Positions 32,515-37,742 of a DNA stretch of 64,000 nucleotides are shown one piece after another. The notes beneath the pieces were generated by a model, which saw only the letters and a list, made by a program, of their open reading frames with translations, did not search any database and was not told where the DNA came from. Origin of the DNA: an uncultured Candidatus Binatia bacterium. Lineage in GTDB: Bacteria > Desulfobacterota > Binatia > UBA9968 > JAJDTQ01. The stretch is taken from positions 1,568,001 through 1,632,000 of the forward strand of contig OZ244070.1 of assembly GCA_965215605.1 (NCBI GenBank), in the 5' to 3' direction. Within the stretch, counting starts at the first letter, position 1, and each line of letters starts with the position of its first letter. The position numbers and the translations under genes are program-made.

Positions 32515-34689
32515 TCAGGGGTTCTCTACGATCTCGAGGGCGGCGTCATCGAGGCCCAGCGATTCGAGCACGGGACCGAAGTACCCGGCGAAGGTGCCCG
32601 TCACGGAACCTTCGACGATCAGACGCTGGTCGTCACCGCAACGGATAACGAGGGAATCCGCCAAGGGGCGCGACAAACGGTGGAAACGGACCTCGTGTTT
32701 CAGGTAGGTGCTCGGCTCGCCGTCGTCTAGTGAAAGATCCATCCTCGGAACCTCCCCAACAACGACGCGGTCAGCGAACAGGAGCACCCAGCGCGCCCGC
32801 GCGTTGCCGGACGACGCCTCGAACACCGCGACGGCCCGGGTCCGAACGTCCGACGTGACGACGCGGCCAGCCGGCGCAGGAAGTGCTCGTTCGCCGATCT
32901 GCCGCAGGATAGCTGGCGCCGATCCTGGCGGGACAGTCGACAGCGTCCCGCACTTCAGGCGATCACGCAGCCGCGACTCCACCGCCTTGAGGTACTGCGC
33001 CCAGAGCGCGGCGACCTGCTTGCGCTCCGGGAGCAACACCGAAGCATTGAACAGCACCATATGGTCGTGTTCGACCGGCCAGTCCGCCGCAGCCTTCGTC
33101 GCCAGTAGATCGACGAAGGAGGCGATCAGTGGTTCGGCCAGGGGGTCTCCGACCAGATCGCGCGGGGGCTCGATCAAGTCTTGCTCACTCTCCGCGACGC
33201 GGTCGGATTCGAGGCCGCCATCGTCGAGGGCCACGGGCATCGCCTTCTCCAGCAGCACGCGGTTCACGCCGGCATCGCCGATACGCTTGCGCGCCGCCAC
33301 GGCGAACGCGCTGCCTTCGATCACCTGCTGCGCTTCTCCGATGTCGAGTCCACACCAATGGCGGGCAAGCATCGCGAGCAGAATGAATCCCTCCCCGATG
33401 CGTATCTCCTCGCGGCTGCCGCTGCCGATCAGATCAACCTGCAGACCGATAGACAGTTCCTTCTCCATTTCCTCTATCGCGTCGCTGGCCTTCGGCTCGT
33501 TCAATCCGCGCATGTCCCGCAGGGTCGCGCCGAGAGACTCGGCAATCGCCTGGCGTCGTGCGGGGGGCAGGGAGGTGAAGTCGACTGGCGGCGTCAGCGT
33601 GGAGTCCGGTTCACCATCGTCCGCAAGCGCGCGCAGCAGCGTCAACTTGGCGAACTCGTCCGGAATCTGGGCGCGCAGAATGCGGTCCAGCAGGACCTTG
33701 CGGTTGTGGTCGACGCCCGGAACCAGCTTGTGAATGCGAAGCGCCTCGACCAACCCCAGCCAGTCAGCGCTCCGATACGTGTGGCCCGGATCGTATGTGC
33801 GCGCCACCTGCAAATAGACCAGCGCTACGGAACCTTCCAGCAGTTCCTTCAGCCAGCCCTCGGCGTACGTCTTGATCACCTGTTTGCCGACCCGCGTCAA
33901 TGCCTCCCCGGCGAGAGTCGACGCTACCAGCGTGACCGGGTTCACACCGAGGGCAATGCGGCCGGCCAGCACCGCACCGCGCAGGTAATGCTGCCAAGGC
34001 GTGTACATCCGATAGAGGCGGCGAGCCTTCTGGACCCGTTCGAGCCACACCACGACTTCCCGAACCGTCCAACCGGTGACGTTGACGACCGGCACCTGCC
34101 GCGCCGCTTGCAGGAGCTCGCCGATGGCGGACCGGGCGGCGAGCGCGATGTCACCGATACGCGCATCCATCTCGGCCCTCTCGGCATCCTTCCCGTACAG
34201 GCGGGCGACTTCCTCCACGACATCGCGGACCTCGTCGAAAACGGCGCGGCCGTCGAGGCCCGCGATCTCCCCGTTTTCTTGCTTCACGTAGCGCCGGTCG
34301 CGGATGCCGTCCCAGACACGGTCGCAGCGGGCCTGGATCATCTTGCCGATCCGTTCGTCCAGTTCCGACGGCGGCCCGTCCGCTTCGGGGCCGTGCGACC
34401 GCTGGAGCGCGCTCCAGGCCAGCTCCGCCGGCGACACGCCCTCGGCCACCCAGCGTTCCTCGACCTCTTTCAAATCCTGCTCGCGCAGTTCGTTGATGTG
34501 CTGCTCCACCTCCGCGACGAGCCGTCGGTCCGCGGCAGCGGACCGCGCGAGACCCGCCGCGAAACCCAGCGCACCGATGCCGAGCAGGGTGACCGCTATC
34601 CCAACTTCTACCGAGAGCAGGATGAAGAGCGAAGCTCCGGAGATCAGGCTTCCGCATCCTGCGAGGAGCCAGCCGACGGACGCGTTCAT
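32515..34689 (-). CDS. Hypothetical 724-aa protein with N-terminal TM hairpin
   Basis: Long ORF with natural-looking composition from MNASVGW; two hydrophobic helices, then a helical body and a beta-rich C-terminus. Confidence 0.7.
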   Translation of the reverse strand: MNASVGWLLAGCGSLISGASLFILLSVEVGIAVTLLGIGALGFAAGLARSAAADRRLVAEVEQHINELREQDLKEVEERWVAEGVSPAELAWSALQRSHGPEADGPPSELDERIGKMIQARCDRVWDGIRDRRYVKQENGEIAGLDGRAVFDEVRDVVEEVARLYGKDAERAEMDARIGDIALAARSAIGELLQAARQVPVVNVTGWTVREVVVWLERVQKARRLYRMYTPWQHYLRGAVLAGRIALGVNPVTLVASTLAGEALTRVGKQVIKTYAEGWLKELLEGSVALVYLQVARTYDPGHTYRSADWLGLVEALRIHKLVPGVDHNRKVLLDRILRAQIPDEFAKLTLLRALADDGEPDSTLTPPVDFTSLPPARRQAIAESLGATLRDMRGLNEPKASDAIEEMEKELSIGLQVDLIGSGSREEIRIGEGFILLAMLARHWCGLDIGEAQQVIEGSAFAVAARKRIGDAGVNRVLLEKAMPVALDDGGLESDRVAESEQDLIEPPRDLVGDPLAEPLIASFVDLLATKAAADWPVEHDHMVLFNASVLLPERKQVAALWAQYLKAVESRLRDRLKCGTLSTVPPGSAPAILRQIGERALPAPAGRVVTSDVRTRAVAVFEASSGNARARWVLLFADRVVVGEVPRMDLSLDDGEPSTYLKHEVRFHRLSRPLADSLVIRCGDDQRLIVEGSVTGTFAGYFGPVLESLGLDDAALEIVENP

Positions 34690-34715
34690 TCGGAGCAATC
34701 GCGTGACGTCATCCT

Positions 34716-35642
34716 TCAGGGAGTGGTCCGCGAGTACTGGGAAGCGCGGCGCTGCCGGAGAAACTCTCCGGCCTCGATGGGCGGGAACTGCCGGGGACGG
34801 TGGTCGCCGCAACAGGAATCCATGCACCGGACCGTGATCTGGCTGTTGGGGTTGTAGAAGAAGACCGTGGAGTACCGCGACTGCTTGACTTCCGGGCCGG
34901 GTAAGGCCACGCGGTGCTTCGGCGACCGGTAGATGCCGTTGGTCCAGCGCGACAGCAGGTCCGCGACGTTGACCGTGACGGTGCCGGGTACCACCGGCAC
35001 CGTCAGCCAGCGGCCGTCCACAAAGGCCTCCAGTCCTTCCACCCCATCCTGAAAGACGAGGGTTACGGTGCCGTAGTCGGTGTGGCTCCCGGCCCGCAAC
35101 TGGCCGGCTCCGGGTTGATGCTCCACCGGCGGGTAGTGGAAGAAACGCGCCGTGCTGGCATGGGGCGCGTGCTTGTCCACGAAGAAATCCTCGGGCGCGT
35201 CCAGGGAGAGCGCCATGGCCTGGAGCAGCGCCGCGCACGCCCGCGCGCCGGCGTCGTGGAGGTCCAGGACCGTTTCGCGGAAACCGGGCACGGGGATGTG
35301 CCAGCGGTCCAGCAGCCCGAGGCTGGCCTGGTTCAGGCTGAAGGATTCCTTGAGGTCCCCCGGCTGTTGGGTGTCGAGGTGCTCGACGGCGACGCCGACG
35401 TAACCCGAGATCACGTCCAGGTCGGACCTGCCGATGGCTTCCTTGATCTCGCCGGGAAGGGCAAAGAATTCCCTGGCCCTGGCCGACACCCGTTCGAGCA
35501 ACCCTTCGGGCAACGGCAGGTTGGCGACGTTGAGGAAGCCGAACTCGGTGCACGCCGCGCGGACCTCCGCGGCCACGCGGCGGCGCGCAGCCGGAGCGCC
35601 ATTCATGAACGGTTCGAAGTCGATTTCGGGTATGATCGGCAC
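34716..35642 (-). CDS. Isopenicillin N synthase-like 2OG-Fe(II) oxygenase
   Basis: HTDYG...H facial triad (SHTD, KHRV), RYS motif, N-terminal DIOX_N (AC.EFGF). Confidence 0.9.
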   Translation of the reverse strand: MPIIPEIDFEPFMNGAPAARRRVAAEVRAACTEFGFLNVANLPLPEGLLERVSARAREFFALPGEIKEAIGRSDLDVISGYVGVAVEHLDTQQPGDLKESFSLNQASLGLLDRWHIPVPGFRETVLDLHDAGARACAALLQAMALSLDAPEDFFVDKHAPHASTARFFHYPPVEHQPGAGQLRAGSHTDYGTVTLVFQDGVEGLEAFVDGRWLTVPVVPGTVTVNVADLLSRWTNGIYRSPKHRVALPGPEVKQSRYSTVFFYNPNSQITVRCMDSCCGDHRPRQFPPIEAGEFLRQRRASQYSRTTP

Positions 35643-36238
35643 TACTCGGCAGCCGCGAGCCGCGAGCCCGCCTCGGTGACGAGCCGCTCCAGTTGTTCGT
35701 AGGGCTCGGCGCCGACGATGGCCAGGCCCTCCGACAGGTAGGTGGGCACGGCGGTCACGCCGAGGGAGTGGCAGCGCTGCCAGTCGTCGTTGACCGACTG
35801 CTCAAAGGTACGGTCCGCCAGCACCTGGCGCGCCTCCTCCACCGGCAGCCCCGCCTCATCCACCACTTGGAGCAGCAGTTCCGGCTTGGAGATGTTCGCC
35901 GCATCGACGAAGTACGCCCGGAACACCGCGTCGTTGAAGGCGTCTTCCCGGCCCTGGTCCTTGGCCCATTTCGCCAATTCCTGGGCCGACCGGCTGTTGT
36001 AGCTGAACTTCCGCTCGGTGAACGGCAGGCCCTCCCGGGCCAGCATGGTATCCACCCGGCTCGGGCCGTTCATGTTCCGCGGCTTGCCGTCCGGCGGGGT
36101 TTCGGGATGCAACGGGAACTGGGTGTAGACAACGTTCAGATCGTGGTTCTGCCGCAGTTTCTCAATACGCCCGGTACTGAGATAGCACCACGGTCAGACG
36201 AAATCCGAGAAAACCTCAAGGGTCACCCGATCGGCCAT
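35642..36238 (-). CDS. DsbA/FrnE-like thioredoxin-fold selenoprotein (UGA = Sec at 36194-36196), about 198 aa
   Basis: MADRVTLEVFSDFV-TGA-PWCYL... continues in frame to FPLHP and GVTAVPT; Sec takes the first Cys position of CPWC; SECIS-like hairpin follows. Confidence 0.88.
36152..36193 (-). promoter_or_regulatory. Bacterial SECIS-like hairpin
   Basis: CCGTGGT-GCTA-TCTCAGTAC-CGGGC-GTATTGAGA-A-ACTGCGG directly after the UGA; G-containing apical loop about 20 nt downstream. Confidence 0.75.
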
Positions 36239-36359
36239 CAGCATCTCCTTCCTTCGCGTTGACAGGCGAGTCGCGAGGAGACGCATGTTATCAGATTTAC
36301 CTCGATAATTCCCACATAGGCCGGCGATTTTCACGTATAGTCGGTCCCAGGAAGGATCC

Positions 36360-37742
36360 ATGCCTGCCGAACCCCTGTCAGAGTTGATCGCGAAGTTCCT
36401 CCAGCGGGTGCGCAGCCGCGGAGTGCCCCGGGCCGTCCGGGAGAGGGCCAAGGAGCACCTGCTGGACGGGTTCGCCGTCATGTTGGGCGGGGTGCCGGAG
36501 GCGGCAAGCCGAAGGATACGGGCGCATGTGGCCTCCATCGGCGGCCGGGGCGAGGCCCGCGTGATCGGGACCGCATTGAAGGCCCCCTGCCAGATGGCGG
36601 CGCTGGCCAACGGGGCGCAGGGGCACGTGCTGGACTACGACGACGCCCAGCTCACCACCGCGGGCGGGCGGCCCTTCGGGCAGCAGGTCCATCCCACGGC
36701 GCCGGTGCTGGCGGCGGCCTTGGCGCTGGCGGAGAAGACCCGCGCGAGCGGCTCGGAACTGCTGGCGGCGTACGCAGTAGGCGTGGAGGTGGCCTGCCGG
36801 TTGGGCGATGCGGTGGAGCCGGACCACTACATGGACGGGTTCCACCCCACCGGCACCCTGGGCGTTTTCGGCGCCGCCGCGGCCTGCGGCGGCCTCCTGG
36901 GTCTCAACCGCGAGCGGACCGGCTGGGCGCTGGGCATTGCCGGCGGATTGAGCGCCGGGCTGCGCGCCAACCGGGGTACCATGGCCAAGGCGCTGAACGC
37001 GGGCCGGGCGGCGGAGAACGGCGTGTTGGCGGCCACCCTTGCGGCAAGAGGCTTCACCGCTTCCGCCGGCGCCTTCGAGGATCCCATGGGGTTTTTCAGC
37101 GCCGCCTGCGGCAACCGCTACGACCCGGAACTGCTGCGCTTCGGCAATCCCTGGTTCCTGAGGAAACCGGGCGTCGCCATCAAGCGCTACCCCTGCGCGG
37201 GCGTGATGCATCCGATGCTGGATGCGCTGCTGGCGTTGCTGGAGCGCCGCCGGGTGCGCGCGGACGCCGTCCATCGGGTGCGGGTCCGCCTGCACCCCGA
37301 CGCCGCGCGTCCGCTGGTCTACGACCGTCCCGGAAGCGGCATGGAAGGCAAGTTCAGCCTGCCCTACACGGCCGCGGCGGCGCTGCTGGACCGCCAGGTT
37401 ACCCCGGGACACTACACGGACGCCCGGGTGCGCGACCCGAGGGTCAAAGCGCTGATGTCTCGGGTGGAGCTGGCGCGGGACCCCGGATTGAGCCCGCCGG
37501 GCGGCTCCGGAGCGGCCGCCGGCGTGGAACTGGTTTTAACCGGCGGCCTTCGGTACTATGAAGCCGCGCCCGACCGGCCCGCCGCACGCCCGGGCCGGCC
37601 GGCACTGGAGGAGAAGTTTCAGCAGTGCGCCGAGCACGCGCGCATCGGGAGCGGGGGCAGCCTACGGAAGTTCGTGGACACGCTGTGGTCCCTGGAGAAC
37701 GTCGATTCCCTGGCCTCCTGGCTCCGTCTCTTGCGCGCCTGA
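36360..37742 (+). CDS. MmgE/PrpD family protein
   Basis: ANG..GHVLDYDD, HPT, GFHPTG, KRYPC, KFSLPY motifs. Confidence 0.88.
   Translation: MPAEPLSELIAKFLQRVRSRGVPRAVRERAKEHLLDGFAVMLGGVPEAASRRIRAHVASIGGRGEARVIGTALKAPCQMAALANGAQGHVLDYDDAQLTTAGGRPFGQQVHPTAPVLAAALALAEKTRASGSELLAAYAVGVEVACRLGDAVEPDHYMDGFHPTGTLGVFGAAAACGGLLGLNRERTGWALGIAGGLSAGLRANRGTMAKALNAGRAAENGVLAATLAARGFTASAGAFEDPMGFFSAACGNRYDPELLRFGNPWFLRKPGVAIKRYPCAGVMHPMLDALLALLERRRVRADAVHRVRVRLHPDAARPLVYDRPGSGMEGKFSLPYTAAAALLDRQVTPGHYTDARVRDPRVKALMSRVELARDPGLSPPGGSGAAAGVELVLTGGLRYYEAAPDRPAARPGRPALEEKFQQCAEHARIGSGGSLRKFVDTLWSLENVDSLASWLRLLRA

Follow-up and report, generated by a model that had tools for sequence, protein, structure and literature searches.

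A number of bacterial proteins of the DsbA family carry selenocysteine (Sec) in place of a cysteine of their active site. A DsbA-like selenoprotein with the motif UxxC was first reported in 2005 from the Sargasso Sea metagenome (PMC1088965), and examples of what is now called form 1 are given for Anaeromyxobacter dehalogenans, Desulfovibrio desulfuricans and Desulfotomaculum reducens in PMC1794560. The 'DsbA-like protein form 1' (PF01323 / COG2761, UxxC) is also tabulated in a 2026 review (PMC13188914), and the definition of the UxxC motif used here is the one found in the tables of PMC1088965 and PMC13188914. A reading of the present DNA made from its letters (the sequence-only reading) had counted DsbA-like selenoproteins amongst the known families, and the UxxC family has indeed been in print since 2005.

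On the side of the Cys-containing enzymes, FrnE of Deinococcus radiodurans (DR_0659; structures 5cnw, 5cp1 and 5co3) is described in PMC8945050 as a disulfide reductase/isomerase that belongs to the DsbA family, is located in the cytoplasm and displays insulin reduction as well as disulfide isomerase activity in vitro. According to the same description, the FrnE subfamily (CDD cd03024) is recognized by a C-P-(W/F)-C motif, and a C-terminal CXXXXC motif of FrnE helps to regenerate the active site. This second motif is not strictly defining, as it is missing from the FrnE proteins of S. roseofulvus and D. maricopensis (PMC8945050). A further relative of known structure is SCO1869 of Streptomyces coelicolor (3gl5), a putative DsbA oxidoreductase.

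With the form 1 selenoproteins the locus described here has in common the PF01323 domain, a UxxC motif with Sec as its first residue and a putative bacterial SECIS element right after the UGA; in both cases Cys homologues are widespread. This likeness is drawn by domain, motif and published description. With FrnE the encoded protein shares the place of the CP(W/F)C-type motif, a V-P loop and probably the lack of a leader; FrnE differs in that it carries Cys instead of Sec, is about 60 residues longer and is only about 25% identical to the present protein. As far as our searches go, the lineage, in which the records of relatives are mostly labelled Candidatus Binatia, is new to the list of form 1 proteins. 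Amongst the literature that joins Binatia-type names with selenocysteine, judged mostly by titles and the opening of abstracts, we found no prior report, and in a paper on Binatota (PMC9999580) the word selenocysteine occurs only in the reference list. By their titles, the publications that join FrnE with selenocysteine likewise include none on such a protein. General knowledge of selenoproteins is unchanged by the present protein, which would add a member to the known DsbA-like UxxC family.

A reading frame split by TGA encodes a candidate FrnE-like selenoprotein

The DNA under study is a stretch of 64,000 nucleotides, referred to as the window. The program-made listing of its open reading frames splits one minus-strand gene into a frame at 36194..36610, ending in ...EVFSDFV, and a TTG-started piece of 156 amino acids at 35642..36112. 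The sequence-only reading had proposed that the frame is broken at TGA 36194-36196 yet continues through it, and this is what we find at that place: a single frame of 198 codons, of which the TGA at codon 15 is the sole interruption, runs from 36238 to 35642 (Table 1). In reading order it comprises the ATG (36238-36236), MADRVTLEVFSDFV, the TGA (36196-36194), PWCYLSTGRIEKL...FPLHP...GVTAVPT and the stop codon TAG (35644-35642). The start codon is kept in 30/30 orthologues. A second in-frame ATG two codons further 5' (36244-36242) is not conserved, its place being taken by L, I, T or V in the orthologues. Over the 14 codons 5' of the TGA the protein is conserved while synonymous sites vary, again in 30/30 orthologues. 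We regard it as very probable that the gene encodes a thiol-disulfide oxidoreductase from the FrnE branch of the DsbA family, apparently leaderless and hence probably cytoplasmic, with Sec15 as its nucleophile (U15-P-W-C18).

Table 1. Positions of the predicted features in the window.
Feature	Position	Strand	Basis
FrnE/DsbA-like candidate selenoprotein CDS, 198 codons including Sec15	35642..36238	-	Translation with TGA=U; PF01323; start kept
Shine-Dalgarno-like AAGGAG, 6 nt 5' of ATG 36238-36236	36245..36250	-	Read from sequence
UGA codon 15, predicted Sec, first (nucleophilic) position of U-P-W-C	36194..36196	-	Homologue comparison and alignment to 3gl5/5cp1
TGC codon 18, predicted resolving Cys of UxxC	36185..36187	-	C18 invariant in alignment A2 and in 78/78 extracted loci
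Pro165 codon, T-A-V-P-T loop	35744..35746	-	V164 and P165 invariant in A2; aligns with G-V-P-F of FrnE/SCO1869
Putative SECIS core, 8-bp stem (CUCAGUAC / GUAUUGAG), 5-nt apical loop CGGGC, codons 20-26	36161..36181	-	Fold, synonymous sites, covariation
Two-tier structure in extended form, predicted only for the present sequence; lower stem includes UGA	36148..36198	-	MFE structure

The Pfam family PF01323 (DSBA) matches residues 6-185 with an E-value of 1.5e-32 (113.4 bits, cut-off 25.6) and spans positions 1-188 of the 191 profile positions. A weak and partial NCBIfam match to NF041057, a different family of seleno-lipoproteins, was rejected, as it reached 26 bits where the cut-off asks for 190. 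Amongst solved structures the best sequence match is SCO1869 (3gl5, E 4.1e-19), which aligns over residues 6-191 and places its CPWCY opposite UPWCY; FrnE (5cp1/5cnw) matches with E 4.5e-18. SCO1869 differs from the present protein in being a Cys form in which longer insertions separate strand beta-2 from the helical domain.

For structural comparison we used an AlphaFold2 model built with a 68-sequence protein alignment (A2), from which residue invariance was also taken. The model has a pLDDT of 89.4 and features a strand at residues 5-11 followed by a helix at residues 16-31; a single-sequence AlphaFold model with a pLDDT of 44.4 had been discarded in its favour. Foldseek returns FrnE entries at ranks 1 to 5 (TM 0.79-0.83) and SCO1869 at rank 6 (TM 0.83), with E-values around 1e-12, while GST kappa and HCCA isomerases match with TM 0.71-0.79 and E-values of 1e-7 to 1e-6. 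As modelled, the closest fold is that of FrnE, ahead of periplasmic DsbA, GST kappa and HCCA isomerase. Pro165 lies in the T-A-V-P-T loop, which we interpret as the cis-proline loop of oxidoreductases with a thioredoxin fold. In the model, strand beta-1 begins after just four residues, too few for a leader, and this apparently leaderless N-terminus points to a location that is probably cytoplasmic. The U-P-W-C motif corresponds to the C-P-(W/F)-C motif of the FrnE subfamily. At the other end, the protein stops at residue 198 (...TEAGSRLAAAE) without a Cys pair, and the CXXXXC motif of FrnE is absent. By analogy with these relatives, the protein would be expected to act as a reductase/isomerase.

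Genomic neighbourhood and other readings of the fold

In 23/24 loci of the genus the next gene downstream encodes a 2OG-Fe(II) oxygenase, and in the window the GTG of this gene shares one base with the stop codon of the candidate selenoprotein gene. This arrangement, together with the Foldseek matches mentioned above, lends some support to the view that the protein is a genuine selenoprotein but either resembles GST kappa or HCCA (2-hydroxychromene-2-carboxylate) isomerases or acts as a partner of the adjoining oxygenase. We consider such a role unlikely, since both sequence and fold are nearest to FrnE and SCO1869, the dithiol-type motif U/C-P-W/F-C is invariant among the homologues, and the oxygenase is a neighbour in 0/34 loci outside the genus. 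The synteny with the 2OG-Fe(II) oxygenase and with MmgE/PrpD neighbours is restricted to the genus and offers no functional clue beyond it.

One metatranscriptome run (X20) yielded four contigs with 90-95% likeness to the gene that cover 35764-36100 only and do not reach the TGA. These contigs stem from a relative, with DNA carry-over possible, and are no evidence of expression.

The interrupted column holds either TGA or a cysteine codon

TGA is found at codon 15 in 30/30 order-level orthologues taken from extracted loci. Across 41 related genomes, 38 contain a match, and all 39 match rows carry a TGA at identities down to 49%, although these genomes are not independent of each other and such conservation counts overstate the support. 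When the comparison is widened to 78 extracted homologues, the aligned column holds TGA in 68 and Cys in all 10 that are free of the stop, the same-codon TGA persisting down to 26-35% identity. In a sample of the phylum, 118/401 genomes have a match, and TGA was counted by hand in 93/123 match rows, including the 53 strongest. Loci from other phyla have Cys at this column in 59/80 cases, in a set that is biased by the scan pattern DFVCPWCY with which it was collected. Within alignment A2, C15 is at least 90% conserved and C18 is invariant.

In alignments with 3gl5 and 5cp1 the TGA falls on the leading Cys of CPWC. The proposal that the UGA sits at the nucleophilic first Cys of a CPWC motif therefore agrees with the aligned Cys of FrnE and SCO1869 as well as with the Cys found in stop-free homologues. 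The alignment of homologues, suggested at the time as a check, returned a column with either TGA or Cys, and this alternation corresponds, as judged from the aligned sequences, to the classic Sec/Cys pattern. Reads with TGC or TGT at this codon had been named as an observation that would refute the proposal; in the contigs of three public runs, which belong to two studies, no other letter occurs at 36194-36196.

A hairpin downstream of the UGA bears the marks of selection as RNA

A two-tier SECIS hairpin had been claimed to lie just 3' of the UGA. Its upper part is formed by the 5' arm CTCAGTAC (36181-36174), the loop CGGGC (36173-36169) and the 3' arm GTATTGAG (36168-36161); the hairpin starts 12 nt downstream of the UGA and its loop begins 20 nt 3' of it. 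The bacterial SECIS (bSECIS) model as quoted in the legend of Fig. 2 of PMC13188914 asks for a loop of 3-9 nt, a stem of 4-16 bp, a spacing of 16-37 nt and an MFE of at most -7.5, with a G, followed by G or U, at position 1 or 2 of the loop. With a loop of 5 nt, a stem of 8 bp, a spacing of 20 nt and G at loop positions 2-4, the hairpin lies within all the quoted constraints, its bare MFE of -7.5 kcal/mol falling exactly on the limit. It thus shares the constraints of the consensus bSECIS of Zhang and Gladyshev and differs from it in the MFE on the limit and in having no matching Rfam model: a scan of positions 35000-37000 against Rfam at E <= 10 gave no SECIS family and only three chance-level matches.

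The fold energy by itself is unremarkable. A stretch of 71 nt has an MFE of -23.4 kcal/mol with a z-score of -1.77, and 13/200 shuffled sequences fold equally well, which is not significant. What sets the hairpin apart from chance is not its energy but the near-zero synonymous variation in combination with compensatory changes of base pairs. The hairpin overlaps conserved helix codons (Y-L-S-T-G-R-I-E-K), and part of its conservation is at the level of the protein; we therefore argue for selection on the RNA from synonymous sites and covariation only. Codons 20-25 each use a single codon in 30/30 orthologues, though the flanking codons vary. Of 183 nine-codon windows, the seven with the lowest synonymous entropy (0.13-0.38 bits, where the median is 0.91) each have their first codon within 15-21, and the gene-wide minimum is located at codons 15-27.

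Both sides of the stem show compensatory changes in 5/8 pairs across 63 distinct sequences. The covariation score amounts to 0.307 compared with 0.129 in shuffles, 0/500 of which reach the observed value, and stem cells are paired in 91.5% of cases as opposed to 25-50% when the register is slid. In 29/30 order-level orthologues, whose proteins are only about 50% identical, the putative SECIS core does not differ by a single nucleotide, and the U-P-F-C subfamily has another stem sequence in the same register. On this evidence the hairpin is under selection as RNA, and together with its agreement with the quoted bSECIS constraints this favours the earlier assignment as a SECIS element just 3' of the UGA.

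Of the two tiers, only the upper 8-bp stem stood up to comparison. The lower tier, in which 36198-36187 would pair with 36158-36148, is predicted for the present sequence and is not conserved in the 63 homologues: its positions are paired in 71.7% of cases, four pairs fail to form in 26-42 of the 63 and the tier as a whole shows little covariation. T36182 and A36160, which would add a ninth pair to the upper stem, do not pair in 34/63 homologues.

The genome encodes a complete selenocysteine pathway

That this genome encodes selenocysteine had been proposed along with a search for selA, selB, selD and tRNA-Sec, and all four are present. The genes selA (512 bits), selB (380 bits) and selD (374 bits) score above their cut-offs and are clustered at C1:1984272-1988341, with selB at C1:1985272-1987158. 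The tRNA-Sec at C1:259405-259499 has acceptor and T stems of 8 and 5 pairs and scores 73.1 bits against RF01852 (gathering score 47). A second 'tRNA-SeC' called by aragorn (C1:2086515-2086611) was rejected: its acceptor stem contains mismatches, and with about 29 bits against RF01852 neither strand comes up to this gathering score. The selD gene itself contains an in-frame TGA at G-U-A-A-K; the region downstream of this UGA folds differently from the hairpin described above, with a GUC loop further away from the UGA and no obvious common motif. A search of the genome with the FdhA model gave no TGA in the matched parts of formate-dehydrogenase-like genes. The use of Sec in this genome would comprise selD and the FrnE/DsbA-like oxidoreductase.

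From the sequence we infer the following course of events, in which selenium incorporation, SelB binding and the reductant are all conditional. A ribosome would meet the UGA 42 nt after the start codon, the downstream hairpin would be bound by the SelB of this genome carrying Sec-tRNA(Sec), and Sec would be inserted in place of termination. Sec15, which in this scheme caps helix alpha-1 at its N-terminus, would attack a substrate disulfide to give a selenenylsulfide, which Cys18 would resolve, and the oxidised U-C pair would be re-reduced by a cellular reductant.

The UGA might instead be read as Cys, Trp or Gly through near-cognate or suppressor decoding, with the hairpin serving as a generic stimulator of read-through and not as a SelB-binding SECIS. 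The inserted residue is not distinguishable by computation, and a database entry of 254 aa, P0052, has W in its deposited sequence at the predicted Sec position. However, the Sec pathway is complete and selD carries a UGA as well, the stop-free homologues have Cys at the column, and the hairpin agrees with the bSECIS model in loop size, position of the G and spacing. In addition, TGA is an ordinary stop in this genome, and indeed the commonest, ending 3232/5280 long frames, so that no genome-wide reassignment is at work. Taken against this evidence, decoding as another amino acid appears very unlikely.

Annotation of relatives and distribution of the U-P-W-C form

Automated annotation had been expected to miscall the gene as truncated, and in the protein databases the close orthologues are indeed shortened. 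Among the matches listed, 52/52 database relatives at an identity of at least 61% are truncated at the N-terminus, with lengths of 133-179 aa and a query coverage of 64-85%, and the three truncated relatives that were examined start at internal Met positions. For these listed close relatives, the active-site half of the enzyme is missing from public protein sets, and redox readings of these uncultured bacteria that are based on proteomes therefore miss the enzyme.

That the TGA is a true stop, be it in a pseudogene, by an assembly or sequencing error or ahead of an N-terminally truncated protein made from an internal start, we hold to be exceedingly improbable: gene callers do give truncated products for these 52 relatives and TGA is the most frequent stop of the genome, but such a product would be devoid of strand beta-1 and of the entire U/CxxC motif, the ATG and the protein sequence of the 14 codons ahead of the TGA are conserved in all 30 orthologues, the TGA is kept at the same codon even in homologues of 26-35% identity, and the contigs of three runs leave the letters of the codon unchanged.

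Returning to the reading as a Sec15 oxidoreductase, we put forward only tentatively that the U-P-W-C form, which is widespread in the surrounding phylum, is vertically inherited and lineage-wide in the Binatia-type genus and order. If this were true, the CGGGC-loop hairpin would define a SelB recognition signature of a little-studied lineage. Repeated switching between Sec and Cys within the family, which forms part of this lineage-wide reading, is a possibility that we view with some doubt; if it did occur, the family would constitute a compact natural system for the gain and decay of SECIS elements inside a coding helix. One Cys form, L079, has kept the hairpin of its U-P-F-C relatives that carry Sec, L086 among them.

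A single in-frame TGA in a FrnE/DsbA-like gene

The mechanical ORF list divides the gene into two pieces, one ending in EVFSDFV at the TGA and the other, of 156 aa, with a TTG start at 36112. Read through the TGA, the frame yields a product of 198 residues with a predicted selenocysteine (Sec15) in a U-P-W-C motif, and this product is a full-length match to the Pfam DSBA profile (PF01323), with 113.4 bits and E 1.5e-32 (residues 6-185 against profile positions 1-188 of 191). The coordinates of the gene and of the features discussed below are collected in the table.

Features of the selenoprotein gene, its surroundings and the selenocysteine machinery (plain coordinates are window positions; G000, this genome; C1, its contig)
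Feature	Position	Strand	Remark
Start ATG of selenoprotein gene	36238-36236	(-)	6 nt downstream of AAGGAG
TGA codon 15	36196-36194	(-)	sole interruption of frame
Hairpin CUCAGUAC-CGGGC-GUAUUGAG	36181-36161	(-)	begins twelve nt after UGA
Stop TAG of selenoprotein gene	35644-35642	(-)	frame end
2OG-Fe(II) oxygenase gene (PF03171 plus DIOX_N)	34716-35642	(-)	adjoins selenoprotein gene downstream
MmgE/PrpD-family gene	36360-37742	(+)	divergent, 121 nt upstream of selenoprotein start
selD, selB, selA cluster	G000:C1:1984272-1988341	(-)	all above curated cut-offs
tRNA-Sec	C1:259405-259499		RF01852 73.1 bits, gathering score (GA) 47

The closest solved relative by sequence is SCO1869 of S. coelicolor (3gl5, E 4.1e-19), and FrnE of D. 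radiodurans (5cnw/5cp1) matches with E 4.5e-18; in both alignments residue 15 falls on the first Cys of C-P-W-C-Y. AlphaFold gave a poor model from the single sequence (pLDDT 44.4) and reached a pLDDT of 89.4 with a 68-row alignment. In the latter model a strand spans 5-11 and a helix 16-31, so that residue 15 caps the N-terminus of the first helix, where the nucleophile of thioredoxin-fold proteins usually lies. Foldseek ranked FrnE entries first (TM 0.79-0.83) and SCO1869 next (TM 0.83), with GST kappa and HCCA isomerases below them and weaker by several orders of magnitude.

The sequence-only reading had forecast that automated annotation would truncate the gene, and for its relatives this is borne out: of the best 120 database proteins, 52 reach at least 61% identity, and every one of these has a length of 133-179 aa and a query coverage of 64-85%; the three short relatives examined all start at internal Met codons. 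Full-length relatives (195-210 aa, 45-52% identity) were Cys forms in all four cases examined. One metagenome-derived database protein of 254 aa, P0052, reads Trp in place of the TGA (F-V-W-P-W-C-Y) and carries a long, spurious extension at its N-terminus; TGA was apparently treated as a sense codon when the gene was called.

Conservation of the TGA and exchange with cysteine

A search of 41 related genomes (E <= 1e-10) gave matches in 38, and the in-frame TGA is present in all 39 match rows, at identities between 99% and 49%; at this threshold G028, G038 and G040 had no match. All 30 order-level orthologue loci extracted have the TGA as codon 15 and retain the ATG start. In one genome (G023:C1:1837135-1837251) only residues 1-39 of the gene are left, at 77% identity and with the TGA still there, apparently the remnant of a gene that one species of the genus has lost.

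Across the phylum, an even sample of 401 genomes (E <= 1e-8) contained a match in 118, and by hand count 93 of the 123 match rows carry the TGA, the 53 strongest included. Homologues had been expected to show either Cys or UGA at this column, and the 78 extracted loci divide in just this way, 68 with TGA (58 U-P-W-C, nine U-P-F-C and one U-P-Y-C) and 10 stop-free with Cys (C-P-W-C, C-P-F-C or C-V-W-C). In the protein alignment of 68 sequences (A2), C15 is at least 90% conserved. A further 80 loci from a collection of species-representative genomes hold U in 21 and Cys in 59, a set biased towards Cys forms outside the genus by the scan pattern DFVCPWCY.

Of the 5280 stop-to-stop frames with 300 codons or more in this genome (65.8% G+C), 3232 end in TGA, and there is no genome-wide reassignment of the codon. 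Logan contigs from three public runs in two studies show no other letter at 36194-36196, which counts for little because contigs drop rare variants and one of the three runs may be the window's own source. In the public sequencing runs X2, X5 and X6, summed contig depth rises about ten-fold over the active-site/SECIS stretch (36146-36247), and the extra contigs differ from the window only upstream of the TGA, at 36203-36240; an invariant active-site/SECIS stretch appears to be common to several co-occurring relatives in these runs.

A conserved hairpin downstream of the UGA

The hairpin has a stem of 8 bp, and its loop of 5 nt begins 20 nt 3' of the UGA. It fits the consensus bacterial SECIS (bSECIS) model as quoted in PMC13188914 (loop 3-9 nt, stem 4-16 bp, spacing 16-37 nt, G in the first two loop positions and then G or U, MFE <= -7.5), the bare hairpin lying exactly at the limit of -7.5. 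Fold energy alone is no proof of the hairpin (z -1.77; 13 of 200 shuffles fold as well), but comparison with relatives is. Codons 20-25 (CTC AGT ACC GGG CGT ATT) are each represented by one codon in all 30 order-level orthologues and codons 26-27 by a single codon in 29 of them, while flanking conserved residues use 2-5 codons. Among 183 nine-codon windows, the seven lowest in synonymous entropy begin at residues 15-21 (0.13-0.38 bits, median 0.91).

In a gap-free alignment of 68 sequences, all Sec forms (63 distinct rows), standard pairs fill 91.5% of the cells of the eight stem pairs; sliding the partner by 1-3 columns lowers this share to 25-50%. In five of the eight pairs both sides have changed (53 cells). 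None of 500 shuffles reached the covariation score of 0.307 (0.129 in shuffles); because sets of related sequences may outscore shuffles even where no structure exists, as the tool warns, the slide control is the safer of the two. The hairpin had been described as two-tiered, and only its upper stem stands. The window sequence is predicted to form the lower tier, in which 36158-36148 pairs with the UGA region, but four of these pairs fail in 26-42 of the 63 sequences, and in 34 the upper stem lacks its ninth pair, so neither is counted in the element.

In the U-P-F-C subfamily another stem sequence (UCGGCAA / UUGUCGA) occupies the same alignment columns, and most Cys forms have no comparable hairpin. 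One Cys-form locus, L079 (G220:C5:67600-68500; Y-I-C-P-F-C), still has a UUGGCAA-GGGCA-UUGUCGA hairpin, that of Sec-bearing U-P-F-C relatives such as locus L086 (G308:C143), and could be a recent Sec-to-Cys switch with a fossil SECIS left behind.

Selenocysteine machinery of the genome

The machinery that the sequence-only reading presupposed, selA, selB, selD and tRNA-Sec, was found in full. The sel cluster lies ~380 kb from the window, and selD has an in-frame TGA of its own (G-U-A-A-K), making it a second selenoprotein gene of this genome. Aragorn made two tRNA-SeC calls; in the one at C1:259405-259499 the acceptor stem is 8 bp and the T stem 5 bp, and the extra arm is long. The other (tca, C1:2086515-2086611) shows mismatches in its acceptor stem and reaches about 29 bits on either strand, where the RF01852 GA is 47; it is probably a palindromic sequence called in error.

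Among bacterial selenoproteins FdhA is the most common, but this genome does not appear to use Sec for it: three formate-dehydrogenase-alpha-like matches (C1:2890892-2892829, 3487460-3488188 and 753060-753812), all below the TIGR01553 cut-off, have no in-frame TGA in their matched parts. A second PF01323 gene (G000:C1:1998357-1998788, 102 bits) has no in-frame stop.

Precedents and predicted function

The window gene is a real, well-supported selenoprotein gene of an already known type, with Sec insertion predicted from sequence. DsbA-like UxxC selenoproteins (COG2761) were described from the Sargasso Sea in 2005, with nine sequences and a predicted SECIS shown (PMC1088965), were listed in 2006 for three cultured anaerobes (PMC1794560) and figure in a 2026 review table as 'DsbA-like protein form 1, PF01323, UxxC' (PMC13188914). 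Of the 20 loci with at least 82% identity, 15 come from records labelled Candidatus Binatia; the Binatota paper PMC9999580 has selenocysteine in its reference list only, and supplementary tables of selenoproteome surveys may already list the lineage.

Proteins of the FrnE type are predicted to be DsbA-family oxidoreductases of the cytoplasm and have a CP(W/F)C motif; D. radiodurans FrnE acts in vitro as an insulin reductase and a disulfide isomerase, its mutant shows sensitivity to cadmium and diamide, and its C-terminal CXXXXC, a tail absent in some members, aids active-site regeneration (PMC8945050). Unlike D. radiodurans FrnE, the window protein lacks this tail, as do all four Cys homologues examined. 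It also probably has no leader, since only four residues precede strand beta-1 in the model. Family membership and these features would suit a cytoplasmic disulfide reductase/isomerase working through a Sec15-Cys18 selenenylsulfide cycle and restored by a reductant.

Gene neighbourhood

The neighbourhood gives no help with function. The GTG of the oxygenase gene overlaps the selenoprotein TAG by one base in the window. Of 24 genus loci, 23 share this neighbour, at variable spacing; none of 34 loci outside the genus does. The MmgE/PrpD neighbour is likewise confined to genus loci, many but not all of which have it. Further downstream, a long ORF (32515-34700, (-)) has an N-terminus that looks hydrophobic (MNASVGWLLAGCGSL...) and, as listed, includes a spurious extension across the oxygenase gene.
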